A stretch of 28,192 nt of DNA from Nitrospiria bacterium (GTDB taxonomy: Bacteria; Nitrospirota; Nitrospiria; JACQCE01): NCBI GenBank assembly GCA_035499635.1, contig DATJYI010000141.1, forward strand, positions 1 to 28,192, written 5' to 3'. The first letter of the stretch is position 1; each line of letters opens with the position of its first letter. Below are positions 4,544 through 21,922 of the stretch, piece after piece. A program made the position numbers and the translations under genes. The notes under the pieces were generated by a model. It was not told the DNA's origin. It did no database searches and was given only the letters and a program-made list of their open reading frames with translations.

Positions 4544-4811
4544 GAGGCGCCTTCGGGTCTATTGTGGGGGCTCGCGTCGCCCCCTTTGCCTCGAACGAAC
4601 GTGAGAGGTCACGTTCGATTCTCGGTTCAAGCACCGAGAAAAGCCTGTGGAGCCTCCCCATCACACTCGCGGTGCTCGCTGGGTAGATTCCCACGGGCGG
4701 CGCGAGCCAGAGGGCCCCGCCTTTAGGCGGGGGTGAATATAGTTTTACGCACGGAGTGCATTGTTCAAAGTCCCACGGATTCACCGTGAACGGGCTTGCC
4801 CGTGGGAATCT
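4544..4811. repeat. Non-coding hairpin-rich mosaic repeat, copy A
   Basis: Blocks shared with 14926-15186: 16/16 (4570-4585), 34/40 (4643-4682), 21/24 (4715-4738); 14-bp inverted repeat 4685-4698/4798-4811. Confidence 0.85.
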
Positions 4812-4865
4812 GCGAAGGCGTGCCGCCGCGGTATCCGCCAGATCGGATCGAGAACGGCATGCCGA

Positions 4866-7081: not shown

Positions 7082-8908
7082 TCACGGCGAAAGCGCGTCG
7101 GCCGTTCGACGGGACGCCCGAAAGACAACGACGCTATGCGCACGCAGGCGGTCGGGCAGCGAACTGCCCGAACCGCCCCACCGGCTATCGGCGGAATCGA
7201 TCAGTTTCTCCCACCTCACGGACCGGTCAGGCATCGGCGCCTCCGCGTCAGATTTGCCGAAATTGAACAGACAGCGGACTTCAACGCGATCCGTCCAGCC
7301 CCGCACCGTGAGGACGGGAGAGCCTTCGCTCACCTGCACGTCGAGCCGGTTGCGATCCGGGCGCGCCAGGGGTGGGGTCTCCTTCCTCAACCGGAACAGT
7401 TCGCAATAGTACTCCAACAGCAGGCGGTGCCTGCCGGTGTCGCGCAACGCCCAGGAGAGCTTGGAACGGAGAAACGTCTCTTCCGCCTGTGGATCGGGCG
7501 GTTCCCCGCTCCAGCGAAACGCCAGGAATTCCTCCTTCCGTCCCCTTCTGACAGCCTCTATCAGGCCGGGATCATCGTGGCTGACGAAATAGAGGAAAGG
7601 CGCTTCCTCGCCGTACTCCTCACCCATGAAGAGCAGCGGGACGGCCGGCGCCAGCGCCACCGCGCCTGCCGACAGCTTGAGCGATTCGAAAGAGACGAGC
7701 GTCGACAGCCGGTCGCCGTTCAAGCGGTTGCCCACCTGATCGTGGTTCTGGGCGAAGACGACGAACTGTTCGGCCGGGCGGTCCGCCGAAGGATTACCGT
7801 GGCGTCGCTTGCGGTAGCGGGAATACTGGCCCGAAAAGACGAAGCCGTCGCGCATCGCCTTCGCCATCTGCGCGGCGGAACCGAAATCTTCATAATACCC
7901 CTGCGTTTCGCCGGTCAGCAGCGTGTGCAGCGCATGGTGATAATCGTCGGACCATTGGGCGTCGAGGCCGTACCCGCCGGCGGACCGGGGCCGGAGTATC
8001 CGCGCGTCGTTCAGGTCGCTTTCGGCGATCAGGGCGACCCTCCGGCCCGCGTCGGCCGACCATGCGGCCGTCCGCTCCGCCAGCTCCATTAAAAACGGGC
8101 TCGCGCTCCGGTCCCTGATGCCGTGTACGGCGTCGAGACGCAGCGCGTCGATGTGATAGTGCGAGAACCAATGCAGGGCGTTCTCGATGAAGTAATTTCT
8201 GACCCCATCGCTCCAGGCGTCGTCGAAATTGATGGCTGATCCCCACGGCGTGGTGTACTTGCTCGTGAAGTAGGGGCCGAACTCGGCCAAGTAGTTCCCT
8301 TCGGGGCCGAGGTGGTTGTAGACGACGTCCAGCACGACGGCCAGATCGCGCGCGTGGCAGGCGTCGACCAGCCGCTTGAGCCCCGCCGGTCCGCCGTAGG
8401 CCTGGTGGACGGCAAAGGGTGCGATGCCATCGTAGCCCCAGTTGCGGACGCCGGGAAAAGGGGTGACGGGCATCAGCTCGACGGCCGTGATGCCGACTTC
8501 GCGCAGAGCGTCGAGCCGGGGAATCACGGCGTCGAAGGTGCCGTCGGGCGTGAAGGCGCCGACGTGCAACTCGTACAGGATCATCTCCGCCGCCGGCCGG
8601 CCGCGCCAGTCACCGTCCCCCCACGCGAATGCGGCGTGGTCGATGATTTGAGAGGGGCCGTGCACGCCATCCGGCTGCGCGTGCGACGCCGGATCGGGTC
8701 GCGGCGGCCCGCCGTCCACCAAATACTGGTAGCGACTGTCCGGAGGAACGTCTTTAGCCGCCGCACGCCAGTAGCCGTCGCCGTCCGGCCGCATGGGAAT
8801 CGATTTGGCGGAGGGAGTGACGAGCTGGACCGTCACGGCCTGATGCGGCGGGGCCCAGACGACAAATTCACACCGATGGCCGCCGAGGTAACGGGCGCCG
8901 ATCTTCAC
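7082..8908 (-). CDS. treZ: Malto-oligosyltrehalose trehalohydrolase (GH13)
   Basis: RPDPASHAQPDGVHGPS, WGYDG, DVVYNH, LRLDAVH, AESD, QNHDQVGNR, MGEEYGE. Confidence 0.95.
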   Translation of the reverse strand: MKIGARYLGGHRCEFVVWAPPHQAVTVQLVTPSAKSIPMRPDGDGYWRAAAKDVPPDSRYQYLVDGGPPRPDPASHAQPDGVHGPSQIIDHAAFAWGDGDWRGRPAAEMILYELHVGAFTPDGTFDAVIPRLDALREVGITAVELMPVTPFPGVRNWGYDGIAPFAVHQAYGGPAGLKRLVDACHARDLAVVLDVVYNHLGPEGNYLAEFGPYFTSKYTTPWGSAINFDDAWSDGVRNYFIENALHWFSHYHIDALRLDAVHGIRDRSASPFLMELAERTAAWSADAGRRVALIAESDLNDARILRPRSAGGYGLDAQWSDDYHHALHTLLTGETQGYYEDFGSAAQMAKAMRDGFVFSGQYSRYRKRRHGNPSADRPAEQFVVFAQNHDQVGNRLNGDRLSTLVSFESLKLSAGAVALAPAVPLLFMGEEYGEEAPFLYFVSHDDPGLIEAVRRGRKEEFLAFRWSGEPPDPQAEETFLRSKLSWALRDTGRHRLLLEYYCELFRLRKETPPLARPDRNRLDVQVSEGSPVLTVRGWTDRVEVRCLFNFGKSDAEAPMPDRSVRWEKLIDSADSRWGGSGSSLPDRLRAHSVVVFRASRRTADALSP

Positions 8909-8942
8909 GGGGCGCCCTGTAATTCAAGCGGAGCAGCGCTAC

Positions 8943-10441
8943 TCATCCCCGGCCGTAGATCGTGGTCATGTCGGCCAGCCGGGCGACAATCCGGCGCGTC
9001 ATCTGCTGGGGCAGCACCCGCCATTCCCAGTTGCCGTTCGCGGTCGAGGGGCGGTTCATCCGGGCTTCCTCGCCCAATCCCAGCAGATCCTGCATCGGGA
9101 TGATCACGGTTTCGGCCACCGACATCATCAGCAGGCGGACCAGTTCCCAATGCAGGGTATGCTCGTCAGGTTCCCGGCCCAGATAGCTATAGAGGCGGTG
9201 GAGTTCCTCGGGGCTGATCTCCTTGCGAATCCACCCGCGGATGGTGTTGTTGTCGTGCGTGCCGGTGTAGGCGACGCAGTGGGGCGTAAAGTTGTGCGGC
9301 GCGAACGGGTGCGTGGGCAAATCCGCGCCGAAGGCGAAGAGCAGCAGCTTCATGCCGGGCAGATTGAACCGGTTCATGAGCGCTTTCACGTCGGGGGTAA
9401 TGACGCCCAAATCTTCGGCAATGAGTGGTAAGTGGGGGAATCGTTGTTTGAGTGCTTCGAACAACTCCGCGCCGGGCGCCTCAATCCACCGGCCGTGCTC
9501 CGCAGTGGCGGCGCCGGCCGGCACCTCCCAGAAGGCCGCAAAGCCGCGGAAGTGATCGAGCCGGATGAGATCGTAGAGCGACAGGTTGTGCGCCACGCGC
9601 TTGATCCACCAGTCATAGCCCGTTTCGGCCAGACGGGGCCAGTCGTAGACGGGATTGCCCCAGAGCTGGCCTGTCGCGCTGAAATAATCAGGCGGCACGC
9701 CCGCGACGGCGGTCGGTTGCTTCAACTCGTTCAGTTTGAAATGGTGCGGGTTGACCCAGACATCGGCGCTGTCGTGCTGGAGATAGATCGGCAGGTCGCC
9801 GATGAGACGGATCTGCCGCTCGCGGCAATGACGTTGCAGCTCGTGCCATTGCGCGTGAAACAGGAATTGCTGGAACTGCTCCAGTCTGATCCGGTCGCCA
9901 TACTGCTCCCGTGCCGCCTCGAGCGCCTGCGGGTTGCGGTCCCGCAGCGGCGGCGGCCAGTTGGGCCACGGGTCGCCCCGATGCAGCTCCTTCAGAACAC
10001 GGAACAGGGCGTAATCGCCCAGCCAGCCGGCCTCGTCGCGGGCGAACTGCAAGAACTCCTCGTGGCGATCGAGCGAAGCCTTAGCTCGTTCGAAGGCCAG
10101 TTGAAAGAGGCTATTTTTGAACTCGGCGGCCTGGCCGTAATCGACCCGGTGCGGATCGAACGAGACGGTCGGGTGGCGCAGATCGGCCGACTTGAGCCAG
10201 CCGTGCTGGACCATCACCTCCGGGCTGATGACCAGCGGATTGCCGGCGAAGGCCGACTCGCTGCTGTAGGGGGAATTGCCCAGCGCCGTCGAGGTGGGTG
10301 TGAGGGGAAGGAGCTGCCAATAGTGCTGCCGGCATTCCGCCAGAAAATCGACGAATCGGATGGCCGCCGGTCCCAGGTCCCCGACGCCATAGGGCGAGGG
10401 GAGCGACGTGGGATGCAGGAGAATGCCCGAGCCGCGCCGGG

Positions 10442-10445
<4 letters not shown>
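8943..10445 (-). CDS. malQ: 4-alpha-glucanotransferase (GH77 amylomaltase)
   Basis: GILLHPTSLP, WQLLPL, RLDHFRGF, AEDLG, YTGTHDNNT, MNRPSTANGNWEWR. Confidence 0.96.
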
Positions 10446-12647
<2,202 letters not shown>

Positions 12648-12661
<14 letters not shown>

Positions 12662-14600
12662 GTTTGAACACCAGCATCCCCAGCGGGGGCAGGGTGATGG
12701 AGAGGGAGTGTTCGCGGCCGTGCGCGGGGACCGGCTCTGCGTGCACGCCGCCCCCGTTGCCGTGGTTGCCGCCTCCGTAGACCGACGCGTCGCTGTTCAA
12801 CCGCTCCTGCCACCAGCCGCTCCGCGGGACGCCCACGCGGTACTGTTCGCGGACGATCGGCGTGAAATTGGCCACAATCAGAAACTGCGCCGGCGACTGG
12901 CGCCCCTTGCGGATGAAACTCAACACGCTTTGCTCCCAGTCCTGGGTGTCGACCCATTCGAACCCCTCCAGGCTGAAATCGAGCTCGTGCAGGGCCGGTT
13001 CGTCGCGGTAGAGGTGGTTCAGGTCCCTGACCCACTGCCGCAGCCCGCGGTGCATCGGATACTGTAGCACGTGCCATTCCAGGCTGGTCTCGTGGCTCCA
13101 TTCCGGCACCTGGCCGAACTCGCCTCCCATGAAGAGCAATTTTTTGCCCGGGTGGCCGTACATCAATCCGTAGAGCAGCCGCAGATTGGCAAACCGCTGC
13201 CATTCGTCGCCAGGCATCTTCCCGAGCAGGGAGCCCTTGCCGTGCACCACCTCGTCATGGGAGAGGGGCAGGATGAAATTTTCCGTGAACGCATAGAGCA
13301 GGCCGAACGTCAGGAGATGATGGCGGTATTTTCTGAAGACGGGATCGCTTGAAAAATAATCGAGCGTGTCGTGCATCCAGCCCATCATCCACTTCATGCC
13401 GAAGCCCAGGCCGCCGACCGAGGTCGGCCGCGACACCATCGGCCAGGCGGTCGATTCCTCGGCAATGGTCTGGACATCGGGGTGGCGTTCGTAGACCGTT
13501 TCATTGAGGCGCCGGAGGAAATGAATCGCCTCCAGGTTCTCGCGTCCGCCGTATTCGTTGGGGATCCAGGCGCCGTTTGGTCTCGCGTAGTCGAGATAGA
13601 GCATCGACGCCACGGCGTCGACCCGGAGGCCGTCGATGTGGTAGCGCTCCAGCCAGAACATGGCGCTGCTCAGAAGGAAGCTTCTGACCTCGTTCCGGCC
13701 GTAATTAAAGATGCAGCTGTTCCATTCGGGGTGAAAACCCTTTCGCGGATCGGCGTGCTCGTAGAGGTGGGTGCCGTCGAAATAGACCAGCCCGTGTTCG
13801 TCCGAGGGGAAATGCGACGGGACCCAGTCGAGAATCACACCGATGCCGCGACGGTGGAGCGTGTCCACCAGGTACATGAAGTCCTGCGGCGCGCCGTAGC
13901 GCCCGGTCGGCGCGAAAAAGCCCGTGACCTGATACCCCCAGGAACCGTAGAAGGGATGCTCCATGACCGGGAGCAGCTCCACATGCGTATAGCCCATCTC
14001 CGCGACGTAATCCGCCAACTGGTCGGCCGCCTCTCGATAGGAAAGCGACCTCGCCCCCTCCTCGGGCACGCGACGCCAGGAGCCGAGGTGCACTTCGTAG
14101 ATCGACAGGGGGGCGTTGAGGCCGTTGGCTTCGCGGCGCCTGGCCATCCAGTCATGATCGTGCCATTCGTAGTCGAGCTCCCAGATTAGCGATGCGGTGC
14201 TGGGCGGAACTTCCGCGCGGAAGGCATAGGGATCGGCCTTGGCCACCGCATAGTTGTGGTGGCGGGAGGCGACATGATATTTGTACCGCGCCCCCGGCCC
14301 CGCACCGGGGATGAAGCCTTCCCAGATGCCGGACTCATCGTCGCGCAGGACGAGGGGGTGGCGCTCCGTGCTCCAATTGTTGAAATCCCCGACGACCGAG
14401 ACCTGACTGGCGTTGGGCGCCCAGACGGCAAACAACGTGCCCGCGATGCCCTCGACGGTGGCGGTGTGTGCGCCCATCTTGCGATGCAGATCGGCATGAT
14501 TACCCTGTTTGAAGAGAAAGATGTCGAACGGCGTGAGCAGGCTGACCGGGCCGGTCACCGGCGCGTCCGAAGCTGCAAGCGTCTGATCGGGTTGGCTCAT
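12648..14600 (-). CDS. glgB: 1,4-alpha-glucan branching enzyme
   Basis: [65 protein letters not shown]. Confidence 0.97.
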
Positions 14601-14665
14601 GGCCGGACCGGGCCCCAGGGACTCGGGGGGCAGGGCGGACAGGTGTGTAGACAGTCGACGATCAT
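14597..14665 (-). CDS. Possible 22-aa Cys/Pro-rich ORF coupled to glgB
   Basis: GGGAGGG 5 nt before ATG; [22 protein letters not shown]; its TGA overlaps the glgB ATG (ATGA). Confidence 0.35.
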
Positions 14666-14900
14666 GGGTGCCCTCCCGCGATGTGGATCATCACGATCAG
14701 CCCCGCCAACAGGGTGGTGGCCCGGCCGGGGGGCTGTTCTTCTCATAGTGTAACTCATACCCGTCATTATGCAACAGCCATGCGCGAAGGAGGCGGTCGA
14801 TCTCCTCCTGACCCTTGGGAACGACGGCGCGTTGCCTGACGTCCATCTGGACGGCCGACGGACGACACCGCCCAGGTCGCGGAGATAGGAGCGGCCTCCG
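14662..14900 (-). pseudogene. Frameshifted C-terminal remnant of a maltokinase (Mak/Pep2 or TreS-Mak)
   Basis: VVPKGQEEIDRLLRAWLLHNDGYELHYEKNSPPA then, after a 1-nt shift, [12 protein letters not shown]; resembles the remembered Mak C-terminal pattern LLxAYLLEKAxYELxYELNNRPxWxxIPLxG and lies in the usual position upstream of glgB. Confidence 0.55.
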
Positions 14901-14925
14901 GACGCCCGATCCCGCCATTCCATTC

Positions 14926-15186
14926 GAGGCGTCATCCGTTTATAGGCGCTCGCGTCGCCCCCTCCCCAGCGGGGACAGTCCGTTCCTGGGGACGGATCAA
15001 ATCTGTCCCCGCCCGTGGAGTCTCCCCCTCTCGCTCGCGTTGCTCGCTGGATTCCGCCTGTGGCGGATGCCCCCCCGGCGGCGTGATCCGCCTCTGGCGG
15101 AAGGGGACCCCGCCCTGAGGCGAGGGTGAATGCAGCTGTTGCGCACGCAATGCGCATCCAGTCAAGCACCCCGGGCTCGCCCGGGG
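14926..15186. repeat. Non-coding hairpin-rich mosaic repeat, copy B
   Basis: Same blocks, order and orientation as copy A (14948-14963, 15011-15050, 15108-15131, 15169-15186); contains an inverted palindrome doublet at 15052-15102. Confidence 0.85.
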
Positions 15187-15411
15187 GCATCCATCAAGAA
15201 ATCCTGGAATCCCGGTCCCAATCATGTTTGTCTTCCCCGGCATGGATGCGCTTCGTCATTCGGCGCCTCGCCCGCATGACGGGTGGATTCCGCTCTCAGG
15301 TTGATTCGCGTGCGGATGGAAAGGGATTGCGCGATCACGGAATGGTGATCTCGGAAAGGACGCGAGTCGGGGAACGGTCCGAAGCCGTCGACTGCACGGC
15401 GACATTTTCTA

Positions 15412-15439
15412 TTTATAACACAACGACTGATGATTGCAA
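15412..15439 (-). promoter_or_regulatory. Sigma70-like promoter pointing through repeat B into the glgB operon
   Basis: TTGCAA (15439-15434), 16 bp, TATAAA (15417-15412) with TGn extension, in the only AT-rich patch of the divergent region. Confidence 0.5.
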
Positions 15440-15513
15440 ACCCGGCGACGGGTTGCGGTTCCGCCGGAAAAGATTTAAAGTAAAGACAATTATCACCGGA
15501 TCGGGGACCGCAG

Positions 15514-16989
15514 ATGCGCATTCTGTTCGTGTCGTCGGAAGTGGCGCCGTTCGCCAAGACCGGGGGACTGGCCGATGTGTCGGGGGCGCTGCCCGCCGCG
15601 CTGGCACGGCTGGGCCATGACGTTAAGATCGTGATGCCGAAATATGCGGCGGTCGACGACCGCCGCTGGATGCTGACGGCCGGTCGCGACATCGCCGTGA
15701 ACGTGGCCGGACGGGACGTCCGATTCACGCTGTGGTCGGGCCGGTTGCCCGACGGCCCGCCCGGCAATCCCGTCGGCTGTTATTTGCTGGGCCATGACCA
15801 TTTCTTCGGGCGGGCCGGCCTGTATCAGGAGAAAGGCCGTGACTATCCCGACAATCTCGAACGGTTCTCCGCGTTCAGCCGCGCGGCGATGGAGGTGCCG
15901 CAGGCGTTGACCTGGAGTCCTGACGTCGTCCACGCCAACGACTGGCAGACGGCGTTGATCCCGCTCTATCTGCGGACGGCGGGTCACCGGATGCCGGGGG
16001 AGGCAGTGCCGGCGACGCTCTTCACCATTCACAATCTCGGGTATATGGGTTTGAGCCCGGCCGATGGATTTCCGCTGCTCGACCTGCCGCCCGCCTACTT
16101 TACGCCGGAGACGCTGGAATTTTACGGCCAGGTCAATCCGCTCAAGGCCGGCCTGCTCTTCTCAACGGTGTTGAACACGGTCAGCCCGACCTACAGCCGG
16201 GAGATTCAAACGCCGGAATTCGGATGCGGCCTCGAGGGCGTGCTGCAACTCCGGCGGCGGGACCTGTTCGGCGTCATCAACGGCGCCGATTATTCGCAGT
16301 GGAGCCCGTCCCGCGACCCCCACCTGCCCGCGCGCTACGATTCGGAGGATCTGGAGGGCAAGCGGGTCTGCAAGCGGGCGCTGCAGAAAGCCTGCGGCCT
16401 GCCGGCCAAGGCGGCGCCGCTCCTCGGCATGATCACCCGCTTGACCGCCCAGAAAGGCGTCGACCTGGTGCTGGACGCGCTGGAGGAATTGATGCAGCTG
16501 GAGCTGCAGCTGGTCATCTTGGGGAGCGGGGAGCCGCAGCTCGAGCAGGCGCTGCAACGGGCGGCGGAGCGCTATCCGACGAAACTGTCCGTGCGGCTGG
16601 CCTTCGATGAACCCTTCGCACACCGGATCGAAGCGGGCGCCGATGGGTACCTCATGCCGTCGAAGTACGAGCCGTGCGGGTTGAACCAGCTCTATAGTCT
16701 TCGGTACGGGACGATTCCGATTGCCCGGAGGACCGGCGGGCTGGCGGACACGATCATCGACGCGACACCGAGCCATCTGGCCGCGGGGACGGCAACCGGG
16801 GTGCTGTTTGAGACCGCCAGCGGTCACGAGCTGCTCACCGCCGTCCGGCTGACGTTGGGCCTGTATCACCAGCGCGCCGTCTGGTCCAGGATGATCCAGG
16901 CGGCGATGGCGGCCGATTTTTCATGGGAACGGTCGGCGCGGGAGTATGTGGCGCTCTACGAACGGGCGATCAAAGCGGCTGGCCAATGA
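15514..16989 (+). CDS. glgA: Glycogen synthase (ADP-glucose type)
   Basis: MRILFVSSEVAPFAKTGGLADV, DWQT, NTVSPTYSREI, PSKYEPCGLNQL, TGGLADT. Confidence 0.97.
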   Translation: MRILFVSSEVAPFAKTGGLADVSGALPAALARLGHDVKIVMPKYAAVDDRRWMLTAGRDIAVNVAGRDVRFTLWSGRLPDGPPGNPVGCYLLGHDHFFGRAGLYQEKGRDYPDNLERFSAFSRAAMEVPQALTWSPDVVHANDWQTALIPLYLRTAGHRMPGEAVPATLFTIHNLGYMGLSPADGFPLLDLPPAYFTPETLEFYGQVNPLKAGLLFSTVLNTVSPTYSREIQTPEFGCGLEGVLQLRRRDLFGVINGADYSQWSPSRDPHLPARYDSEDLEGKRVCKRALQKACGLPAKAAPLLGMITRLTAQKGVDLVLDALEELMQLELQLVILGSGEPQLEQALQRAAERYPTKLSVRLAFDEPFAHRIEAGADGYLMPSKYEPCGLNQLYSLRYGTIPIARRTGGLADTIIDATPSHLAAGTATGVLFETASGHELLTAVRLTLGLYHQRAVWSRMIQAAMAADFSWERSAREYVALYERAIKAAGQ

Positions 16990-19931: not shown

Positions 19932-20022
19932 GATGCCGGACGGGACCATTTTGGCAGAATCGGCGCCGAGTCTCAAGTGCGCTCGGAAGAGGAAATGGAT
20001 GTCCAGGGCATTGAATCGGCTC

Positions 20023-20050
20023 GCAACGCGAGCGTGAGGGGAAGGCTCCA
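20023..20050 (+). repeat. Third, partial copy of the repeat core (copy C)
   Basis: GCAACGCGAGCGTGAGGGGAAGGCTCCA is 25/28 identical to the minus strand of copy B within 15011-15050. Confidence 0.75.
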
Positions 20051-20250
20051 ATGAGGTCAACCCGGGGGCCGGTGGGGCCACAACGGTGGCCTGGGGCGTG
20101 GGGGCCATGGAGGATCCTGCTCTGCTTCTTCCGCACAGGCCCCCACATTTCATGTTGACGCGAACCCCATATAACGGTTGTCTAACGACGACGGATCTGG
20201 TAGGCTAGGCCCGTCGCTGTCTCGGCGGTCCCGCCGAGCGTGAGGAGACA

Positions 20251-21808: not shown

Positions 21809-21922
21809 CCCGGACAGCGAGCGTAGTCCCCGCCTGTAAGGCGGGGATGAGCGTGCGAATATCAACCTGCCCTTTTCCACTCGGGTCGAAGAATCCCCGC
21901 CTGTGAGGGCGGGGTTCTTCAA
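21809..21922 (+). mobile_element. Non-autonomous IS200/IS605-type mini-element (both ends, no tnpA/tnpB)
   Basis: Left hairpin TCCCCGCC-TGTAA-GGCGGGGA (21827-21847); right end GAAT-CCCCGCC-TGTGAG-GGCGGGG-TTC-TTCAA (21891-21922), the same layout as IS608/ISDra2 right ends; preceded by TTGAA. Confidence 0.75.

Follow-up and report, generated by a model that had tools for sequence, protein, structure and literature searches.

A probable family of mosaic, non-autonomous REP/BIME-like mobile elements in Nitrospiria

Introduction

Repetitive extragenic palindromes (REPs) are intergenic repeats defined by a GTAG or GTGG tag placed 0-2 nt before a hairpin (PMC6006769, PMC3733652), and REPs joined to inverted REPs through variable linkers, in several combinations, make up bacterial interspersed mosaic elements (BIMEs). 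In E. coli and other Proteobacteria they occur with TnpA-REP, a REP-associated tyrosine transposase (RAYT; PMC3733652, PMC3333891). The E. coli enzyme depends on both GTAG and hairpin, its cuts in single-stranded DNA fall at C|T to either side, and its alternative cleavage has been proposed as the source of BIME variants (PMC3333891). Here we describe two related non-coding elements, A (about 4561-4813) and B (about 14939-15192), in a 28,192-nt stretch of DNA from a Nitrospiria bacterium (contig DATJYI010000141.1 of GenBank assembly GCA_035499635.1; hereafter the window). They are probably members of a lineage-specific family of mosaic, non-autonomous REP/BIME (REPIN-like) mobile DNA elements.

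Several other described systems are relevant. REPINs, known from Pseudomonas with single-copy RAYTs (Bertels and Rainey; RAREFAN preprint 10.1101/2022.05.22.493013), are long hairpins of two inverted arms. TIRYT units or 'TIRtrons' consist of a Y1 gene between GGGGWSAS inverted repeats (Di Nocera 2013, PMC3733652; subclass 2.1 of Quentin et al. 2018, PMC6006769). Insertion sequences (IS) of the IS200/IS605 kind and their gene-less derivatives are presumed to move by single-strand HUH chemistry, and BOX elements of Streptococcus pneumoniae are built as boxA-boxB(n)-boxC. No description of REP families or of miniature inverted-repeat transposable element (MITE) families in Nitrospirota was found in the literature.

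Copy number and distribution

The window is contig C141 of a wetland metagenome-assembled genome (MAG; G000) of 2.18 Mb in 291 contigs, with 62.7% G+C and 88% completeness. A and B can be aligned over about 260 nt. They share an exact 16-mer, GCTCGCGTCGCCCCCT (4571-4586 and 14949-14964), an ungapped 40-mer at 85% identity (4643-4682 and 15011-15050), a CCCCGCC-n4-GGCG(G/A)GG hairpin followed by GTGAAT, a small CGCACG hairpin and a terminal hairpin. The original prediction had reported these two copies with shared 16-mer, 40-mer and hairpins in the same order and on the same strand, and the alignment and folds bear it out. As single-stranded DNA, A folds at -65.2 kcal/mol (z = -5.5) and B at -70.9 kcal/mol (z = -4.4), and none of 200 dinucleotide shuffles was as stable in either case. 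Together, the alignment, the shared hairpins and the stability relative to shuffles indicate that the likeness is real and not due to chance.

The element had been described as present twice. A third member lies at 20174-20019 of the window, on the minus strand, BLAST with A and B as queries returned at least 36 loci in the genome, and a search for the head motif (see below) found 44 heads in the 2.18 Mb, nearly all between predicted genes. The family is thus extragenic and of high copy number, as GTAG-tagged REPs are required to be. Five loci have a contig end no more than 300 nt away, and in four wetland or peat sequencing runs the Logan contigs that hold window DNA break inside A and B, with other slot variants visible; the copies are therefore probably under-counted. 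No empty allele was listed among these contigs, which by their nature cannot show absence. Word depth across B in these runs (X1-X4) was 10-20 times that of its flanks, which, with the hairpin variants, indicates that the family is present there in great number and variety.

Members occur in several families of Nitrospiria. Relatives carry dozens of copies; 48 palindrome arms were found in genome G018 and 27 in G010, and the repeats are abundant in four Nitrospiria families (f1, f2, f5 and f9). A loose tail pattern gave mostly false matches and was left out. In a sample of the phylum 3 of 250 genomes matched, a lower bound because three candidates were scored per genome.

Structure of the element

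Copies from four Nitrospiria families have the same order of parts: head, slot stem, box and palindrome. The head is a GTAG (or GTGG/ATAG) tag before a short G+C hairpin, the slot is a CTCC...GGAG stem with an interchangeable hairpin at its tip, and the box is a conserved, mostly unpaired segment with two GCTCGC half-sites. The palindrome is optional and has the form GTAG-ATNCCCACGGGC ... GCCCGTGGGN'AT-CTAC, its loop being expandable to about 115 nt with further hairpins. The class consensus reads TATT-GTAG-GGGCT(C/T)GCGTCGCCCC / CTCC-[variable hairpin]-GGAG in the 5' half and CCTCCCCCTCnCGCTCGC(C/G)TTGCTCGCTGG / GTAG-AT(N)CCCACGGGC-[0 to ~115 nt]-GCCCGTGGG(N')AT-CTAC in the 3' half. Units measure 100-300 nt; short forms of about 100-110 nt end after the box or bear a minimal palindrome, and long forms such as A and B have within the palindrome a segment complementary to the head, the CCCCGCC-n4-GGCGGGG hairpin and other small hairpins. 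The idea of a conserved scaffold with exchangeable stems was correct.

Copy A lies on the plus strand at 4561-4813 (5'-ATTGTGGGGGCTCGCG ... GCCCGTGGGAATCTGC-3', ends placed to about 2 nt) and its ends fit the family consensus. Its head (4564-4584) comprises the GTGG tag (4564-4567), a GGGGGC/GCCCCC hairpin (4566-4571 with 4579-4584) seen in the fold and invariant in an alignment of 11 short forms, and the 13-mer GGCTCGCGTCGCC (4569-4581). The slot (4585-4631) is followed by the box GTGGAGCCTCCCC..CTCGCGGTGCTCGCTGG (4647-4682) and by the left palindrome arm GTAG-ATTCCCACGGGC (4683-4698), which pairs at 16 of 16 positions (one of them G:T) with the right arm, GCCCGTGGGAATCTGC (4798-4813), the 3' end of the element, for which the family consensus is ...ATCTAC. 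Between the arms are an anti-head, GGCGGCGCGAGCC (4696-4708), complementary to the head 13-mer at 13 of 13 positions with one T:G, and the CCCCGCC-TTTA-GGCGGGG hairpin with its GTGAAT (4715-4738). The box is the most conserved segment class-wide, is near-invariant in alignment A3 and, at query positions 70-136, accounts for the matches in genomes of other Nitrospiria families.

Copy B, also on the plus strand (14939-15192, ends placed to about 4 nt), has its slot at 14971-15010 and its box at 15016-15051. Its left arm GGATGCCCCCCCGGC and anti-head GGCGGCGTGATCC (15066-15090) pair with the tail at 11 of 14 and with the head at 11 of 13 positions, and it ends in the hairpin CCCCGGGC-TC-GCCCGGGG (15170-15192) with the 3' end GCATCC. 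The third member (20019-20174, minus strand) has a degenerate head, ATATGGGGTTCGCGTC, and a box variant, GCTCGCGTTGCGAGC, and is without the 3' palindrome.

Over the 44 heads the tag directly before GGGGC...GCCCC has G in 34 (77%), T in 34 (77%), A in 40 (91%) and G in 41 (93%); A has GTGG and B has ATAG. A GTAG or GTGG thus stands 0-2 nt 5' of a hairpin, as in GTAG-tagged REPs, and a second GTAG directly precedes the 3' palindrome arm. The published REP search rule (Quentin et al. 2018) asks for a basal stem of 7-20 fully paired nt and a loop of 2-5 nt, or a long bulged hairpin, in a unit of 20-40 bp whose tag is unpaired. Short 3' palindromes, e.g. GTAGATACCCACGGGC-AAA-CCCGTGGGTATCTAC, fit the stem and loop part of this rule, yet their tag pairs with CTAC. 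The pairing of a REP with an inverted REP across variable linkers, which defines BIMEs, is found here as head and anti-head and as arm and inverted arm, in many combinations.

Covariation of the arms was assessed in 37 elements that combine a strict box with a 3' partner. The 16-nt arms pair on average at 14.2 positions, compared with 10.9 for shuffled partners (maximum 11.8 in 1000 shuffles). All four Watson-Crick pairs occur at arm position 7 (A-T 7, T-A 9, G-C 9, C-G 7), position 11 is A-T in 18 and C-G in 10, and position 1 is G:T in 13 of the 37. The head 13-mer and the internal anti-head pair at 11-13 of 13 positions with a constant T:G wobble, and at one position both partners differ between clades (C-G in 12 copies, T-A in 4, T-G in 1). 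In 11 short forms from six genomes, RNAalifold recovered three parts, namely head hairpin, CTCC/GGAG stem and palindrome; in three of the base pairs both partners had changed. The hairpin arms are held complementary by compensating changes, and the pairing is under selection. Since the order of head, arm, anti-head and second arm is interleaved, the two long-range helices are either alternatives or parts of a pseudoknot-like fold.

Insertion sites and ends

Both neighbourhoods are kept in G001, a genome of the same genus with a GlgA 84% identical, and both elements are absent there (contig C38 for A, locus L032 for B). At the empty site of A, 12 diverged bases separate flanks that are alignable as far as 4551 and again from 4814; at that of B, 4 bases separate flanks alignable as far as 14933 and again from 15190. 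Two reciprocal cases were found. In the first, genome G002 is filled (locus L126, gagc-AT[TGTAGGGG...GGGGGCATCT]AT-gaaacgg) and C159 of the source genome is empty (GGAAC-AT-GAAGCGG); in the second, G001 is filled (locus L137) and C23 of the source genome is empty (GGTT-C-ACGGG). The junctions in these two cases are ambiguous by 'AT' or 'T' and nothing more. No target duplication longer than 2 nt was seen at the compared sites; ATCC (4 nt) is present at both junctions of B. Copies occupy unrelated places in each species; for those in further relatives most intergenic flanks were too diverged for junctions to be placed. The empty-site comparison, which had been proposed as a check, shows that whole units are gained and lost as blocks.

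A tandem junction in C186 (...GGGCATCT|AATGTAGAGGCTCG) pins the element ends, which, with the class-wide consensus, are 5'-(T)ATTGTAGGGG and ...GGG(N)ATCT(AC)-3'. The 5' and 3' termini are not inverted repeats of each other. The extents originally given, 4544-4811 and 14926-15186, correspond to a real element whose bounds shift to about 4561-4813 and 14939-15192. GAGGCG, which had been counted among the shared parts, belongs to the flanking DNA: the sister genome has it at the empty sites too, and its occurrence beside both copies is a coincidence.

The 5' flank of the 44 heads is not a fixed tetra- or pentanucleotide and shows a weak preference for T at -3 (25/44) and C at -2 (28/44). The 5' end of many elements lies 0-25 nt from the Shine-Dalgarno sequence and start codon of an opposite-strand gene, with the flank ...CTCCTT|ATTGTAGG (C82:6524, C82:9195, C7:666, C11:905, C132:19153, C180:14524, C237:3544 and several of the G-hairpins described below). 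This proximity may explain the T/C bias of the flank, or may reflect a preference for A+T-richer spots in a G+C-rich genome.

Variable slot

The slot is filled by other, independently repeated mini-elements. In A it holds a 47-nt 'N' unit (TTTAC|CTCGAA...GATTCTCGGTACAAG), which reads TTGC|CTCGAACGAACG...GATTCTCGGTTCAAG at 4585-4631 on the plus strand. The unit has 21 genomic copies. Two perfect hairpins reported earlier between the 16-mer and the 40-mer of A are indeed present, but they belong largely to this separate repeat, which supplies the first and half of the second. N units also occur, after TTTAC, in the loop of the CCCCGCC hairpin of A/B-family copies in C75, C82, C116 and C212, and the unit is the core of a second repeat family of about 150 nt with GCAGGCCGTTCAAAAAG inverted ends. 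Besides window positions 4585-4631, it was seen in C29, C46, C84, C116, C131, C148, C233, C252, C273 and C275, and its hairpin covaries (GAATCGGA/TCCGATTC and GAACGTGA/TCACGTTC). A hammerhead-like reading of the unit, considered for its GATGAG, found no support in Rfam.

The slot of B is an inverted pair, GGGGACAG...(AAT)CTGTCCCC, around an 18-nt hairpin (14979-14996) that has three copies only. Its arms fit the TIRYT inverted-repeat consensus GGGGWSAS (PMC3733652), and sister copies of this slot type have arms GGGGACAGATTT, identical to the opening 12 nt of the inverted repeats around Y1 genes or Y1 remnants (C138, L208). Many other copies have a simple 13-21-nt hairpin in the slot. Contigs from runs X1-X4 link the head of B to its box (14965-15016) through at least six other hairpins of 13-21 nt, e.g. 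ACTGGCCAAGCCAGA and ATCCGCCGCAGGCGGAA.

The third member has in its slot a 'G-hairpin', GTGGGGGCCCGTGCGG...CCTCCGATGCCCCCAC, for which 120 motif matches were obtained, about 90 of them seemingly true copies. Its full form is (ATTnaAT)GTGGGGGCCCGTGCGG..variable tip..CCTCCGATGCCCCCAC(G/A)CCCC(G/A)AGCC; it lies at 20150-20100 on the minus strand of the window and in about 90 places overall, such as C23, C53, C85, C88, C106 and C266. There are several tip variants, one with a T-arm-like GGTTCGAAACC loop, and the hairpin is often trailed by a '...cccatcggcc' module or led by a GGGGGGAGA..TCTCCCCCC hairpin. The G-hairpin is REPIN-like in look and its 5' end resembles the A/B-family head.

Y1 transposase genes and other features

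The source genome has one Y1_Tnp gene (C82, about 288 aa). Its product scores 86.5 bits on NCBIfam NF047646, REP-associated tyrosine transposase (cut-off 80), and has a weak C-terminal helix-turn-helix (HTH) match; the gene is bounded by perfect inverted repeats TGGGGTCAGGTCTATAATGTTTGA. This TIRYT unit (C82:1181-2112; L031 983-1916), with its 288-aa RAYT-like gene and 24-bp repeats, has a G+C content below that of its surroundings and comes right after a gene resembling that for ATP synthase epsilon. The repeat has a third copy, in C61, and the unit is also present in G002 (L198). Relatives have 1-12 Y1 genes each, among them a 151-aa frame in G018:C338 with a strong Y1_Tnp match typical of IS200.

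Distant arm pairs in G018, 1.6 and 2.5 kb apart, were examined as a possible autonomous element and rejected: they enclose housekeeping genes (for a leucyl aminopeptidase and a pyruvate:ferredoxin oxidoreductase-type protein) and no transposase. Within about 1.5 kb on either side of 46 Y1_Tnp loci in the source genome and 18 relatives, G-hairpin motifs gave nothing convincing. At C138:9285-9360, GGGGACAGATTTATTTTC...GAAAATAAATCTGTCCCC, two TIRYT-type ends stand about 50 nt apart with no gene between, in look a gene-less mini 'TIRtron'.

In the window, after an archaeal-type phosphoenolpyruvate carboxylase gene, two further hairpins lie about 50 nt apart (21820-21922): GTAG-T-CCCCGCC-TGTAA-GGCGGGG, which fits the canonical GTAG REP rule, and GAAGAAT-CCCCGCC-TGTGA-GGGCGGGG-TTCTTC. 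The pair recurs in C125, C196 and C275, with single hairpins in C180 and C231. The fit of the first hairpin and the recurrence favour a REP doublet over a mini IS200/IS605 element.

Copy A is located between two minus-strand genes. Copy B lies in the divergent control region of glgB (minus strand) and glgA, a region 256 nt shorter in the sister species, within a glycogen/alpha-glucan cluster (7082-16989) that also encodes an alpha-amylase-family protein with CBM48 and DUF3459 domains (treZ/glgX-like), a 4-alpha-glucanotransferase and a second CBM48 amylase-family protein. The closest named relatives of this glgA come from Nitrospirota MAGs (class Nitrospiria).

Discussion

Among described systems the A/B family resembles REP/BIME most directly in the GTAG/GTGG tag placed before G+C-rich hairpins, in units that occur in both orientations with linker motifs and form mosaics, and in an intergenic distribution of tens of copies that varies between relatives. 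Terminal inverted repeats and target duplications are absent in both, C|T is found at the borders, and the genome encodes a RAYT-type Y1 protein. In contrast to REP/BIME, the A/B unit keeps its parts in a fixed order over 100-300 nt and includes a conserved unpaired box. Its head stem is no longer than 5-6 bp, its 3' palindrome has a tag that is paired with CTAC, no REPtron (a Y1 gene between A/B repeats) was found, and the host phylum is Nitrospirota.

The 3' module, two inverted 16-nt arms forming a long hairpin, is like a REPIN in its covarying arms, its variable spacer and its mostly vertical inheritance within a lineage; unlike a REPIN, it is part of a larger unit, is often absent (short forms), has further hairpins in its spacer, and no flanked RAYT gene was found. 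The only Y1 genes found in this genus are of TIRYT type, with terminal inverted repeats GGGGTCAG.., GGGGACAG.. or GGGACACG.. and a C-terminal HTH, and the B slot is an inverted pair of TIRYT-type ends. The ends of the A/B family itself, however, are not GGGGWSAS repeats, and a functional link would be hypothetical. IS200/IS605 elements and their derivatives share with the family subterminal hairpins and the lack of a duplication; the A/B family differs in its GTAG tags and has neither a tnpA/tnpB long form nor a fixed target tetranucleotide. BOX elements are likewise modular and highly structured, with conserved end modules and a variable middle, but their sequence is unrelated, their ends complement each other and they have no GTAG tags.

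The REP/BIME option was one of those raised in the original prediction, and we regard it as probable. It agrees with the GTAG tags, the covarying GTAG...CTAC palindrome, the mosaic make-up, the insertion polymorphism without target duplication or terminal inverted repeats, and the REP-type transposase homologue encoded in the genome. A and B would then belong to a known kind of repeat, REP/BIME/REPIN, within which their family is new and has an unusual, fixed composite layout; they would not be a new RNA gene. Such a unit would move in single-stranded form. Tag and hairpin would be recognised by an HUH enzyme, a RAYT/TIRYT-group Y1 tyrosine transposase, which would cut at C|T dinucleotides; these are present at both proposed ends (TC|TATTGTAG... 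and ...AATC|TAC). The mosaic variants could arise from alternative cut sites and nested insertions, in line with the Ton-Hoang model of BIMEs. Effects on nearby genes, if any, would be incidental.

Several observations weigh against this explanation. The head hairpin (5-6 bp stem, 7-nt loop) is below the 7-20 bp of the published REP rule, and the GTAG tag of the 3' palindrome is itself paired. The evidence for movement comes from sequence comparison, and the four empty-site comparisons are between species 80-90% identical, so that cut positions are uncertain by 1-4 nt; in 2 of the 4 the left flank is without the final C. The Y1 genes of this genus are each bounded by their own repeats, beginning GGGGTCAG, GGGGACAG, GGGACACG or GGGGACAC, in the TIRYT arrangement (GGGGWSAS consensus, PMC3733652) and not by A/B-family repeats. 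No head, box or arm was found within about 1.5 kb of the 46 Y1_Tnp loci, which are from incomplete MAGs, and the longer versions enclosing tnpA, tnpB or a RAYT that had been suggested as a search target were found neither there nor around the heads. REPtrons are missing in some REP-bearing species as well (PMC3733652). With no A/B-family repeat beside any of these Y1 loci, the link to an HUH enzyme rests on analogy, by which such an enzyme is the likely engine of the family.

A bolder version of the REP/BIME explanation, to which we give little credence, is that the family is the missing substrate of 'orphan' TIRYT-type Y1 enzymes. The interleaved, pseudoknot-like single-stranded fold (head with anti-head, arm with arm) would present two C|T ends, and the tip of the CTCC...GGAG stem would serve as a landing pad for smaller hairpin elements (N unit, G-hairpin, dimers of terminal inverted repeats). 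If true, this would be a hierarchical system of mobile DNA targeting hairpin tips, with enzymology so far undescribed.

Alternatively, the elements could be non-autonomous derivatives of IS200/IS605 (palindrome-associated transposable elements), whose TnpA recognises subterminal hairpins and inserts 3' of a short target. The asymmetric ends with subterminal hairpins, the absence of a target duplication, the weak T and C preference at -3 and -2 and the IS200-typical frame in one relative are as expected of such elements, and the terminal hairpins had earlier been likened to IS200/IS605 ends. That reading is not supported: no copy encloses tnpA or tnpB, a box or tail follows all heads within 60-380 nt, and no TnpB/Cas12f domain (PF07282) was found in the 88%-complete MAG. 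The GTAG/CTAC tags are a signature of REPs and not of IS200/IS605 ends, and the 5' flank is not fixed. We consider this origin unlikely.

Equally doubtful is a spread mainly by recombination, gene conversion or replication slippage between copies, with no dedicated transposase and with the 'empty sites' being short-repeat deletions. Mosaic, exchangeable modules, the ATCC at both junctions of B and the lack of a cognate transposase at the 46 Y1 loci would fit, and CGTC-type REPs have been reported without a transposase (PMC3733652). Presence and absence are, however, reciprocal at four unrelated loci with clean junctions and a flanking repeat never longer than 4 nt; the copies lie at unrelated places in each species, and the same defined ends recur from family to family.

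The other option originally put forward was a structured RNA. The copies might then be cis-regulatory leaders, or members of a small RNA family, that adjoin the genes they control. The stems are strong and covary, the mismatches on the head-to-tail strand are G:T rather than A:C (the T:G of head and anti-head, the G:T at arm position 1), and REPs are known to act in mRNA stability (PMC3733652). On the other hand, Rfam 15 gave no match on the repeat, either at gathering score in the window (where the sole match was an unrelated tRNA) or at E <= 1 in the window and 11 loci with copies, HEARO and IS-associated RNAs included. Orientation is random with respect to both neighbours, element and upstream gene being on opposite strands 25 times and on one strand 17 times, and element and downstream gene 20 and 18 times, respectively; these counts are approximate, as they rest on a GC3 gene-calling heuristic. 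The neighbouring genes are unrelated, the sites are empty in the sister species despite the same genes, the repeats insert in many copies and the slots hold other mobile repeats, all of which makes an RNA function as the primary explanation highly improbable. A riboswitch-like leader, considered because A and B both lie 330-380 nt upstream of a minus-strand gene, was dropped once the sites proved empty in the sister species and orientation proved random.

A classical MITE, mobilised by a DDE transposase through binding of its terminal inverted repeats, can be all but dismissed: the family is small, non-coding and multi-copy and has inverted pairs (head and anti-head, arm and arm), but these pairs are internal and interleaved, the termini are not inverted repeats of each other, and the empty sites show at most 1-2 nt of ambiguity (4 nt, ATCC, for B) and no target duplication.

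Conclusions

A candidate 'new structured RNA' can be removed from the list and explained as selfish DNA. A REP/BIME-like family is documented by empty sites and covariation in Nitrospirota, a phylum outside the REP surveys consulted, and its slot collects other mini-repeats. Such repeats fragment MAG assemblies, as seen in the wetland-run contigs that break at A and B, and can be mistaken for riboswitches or small RNAs. The family also provides a test case for the question, raised by the work of Di Nocera et al. 2013 (PMC3733652), whether GTAG repeats can be substrates of TIRYT enzymes.

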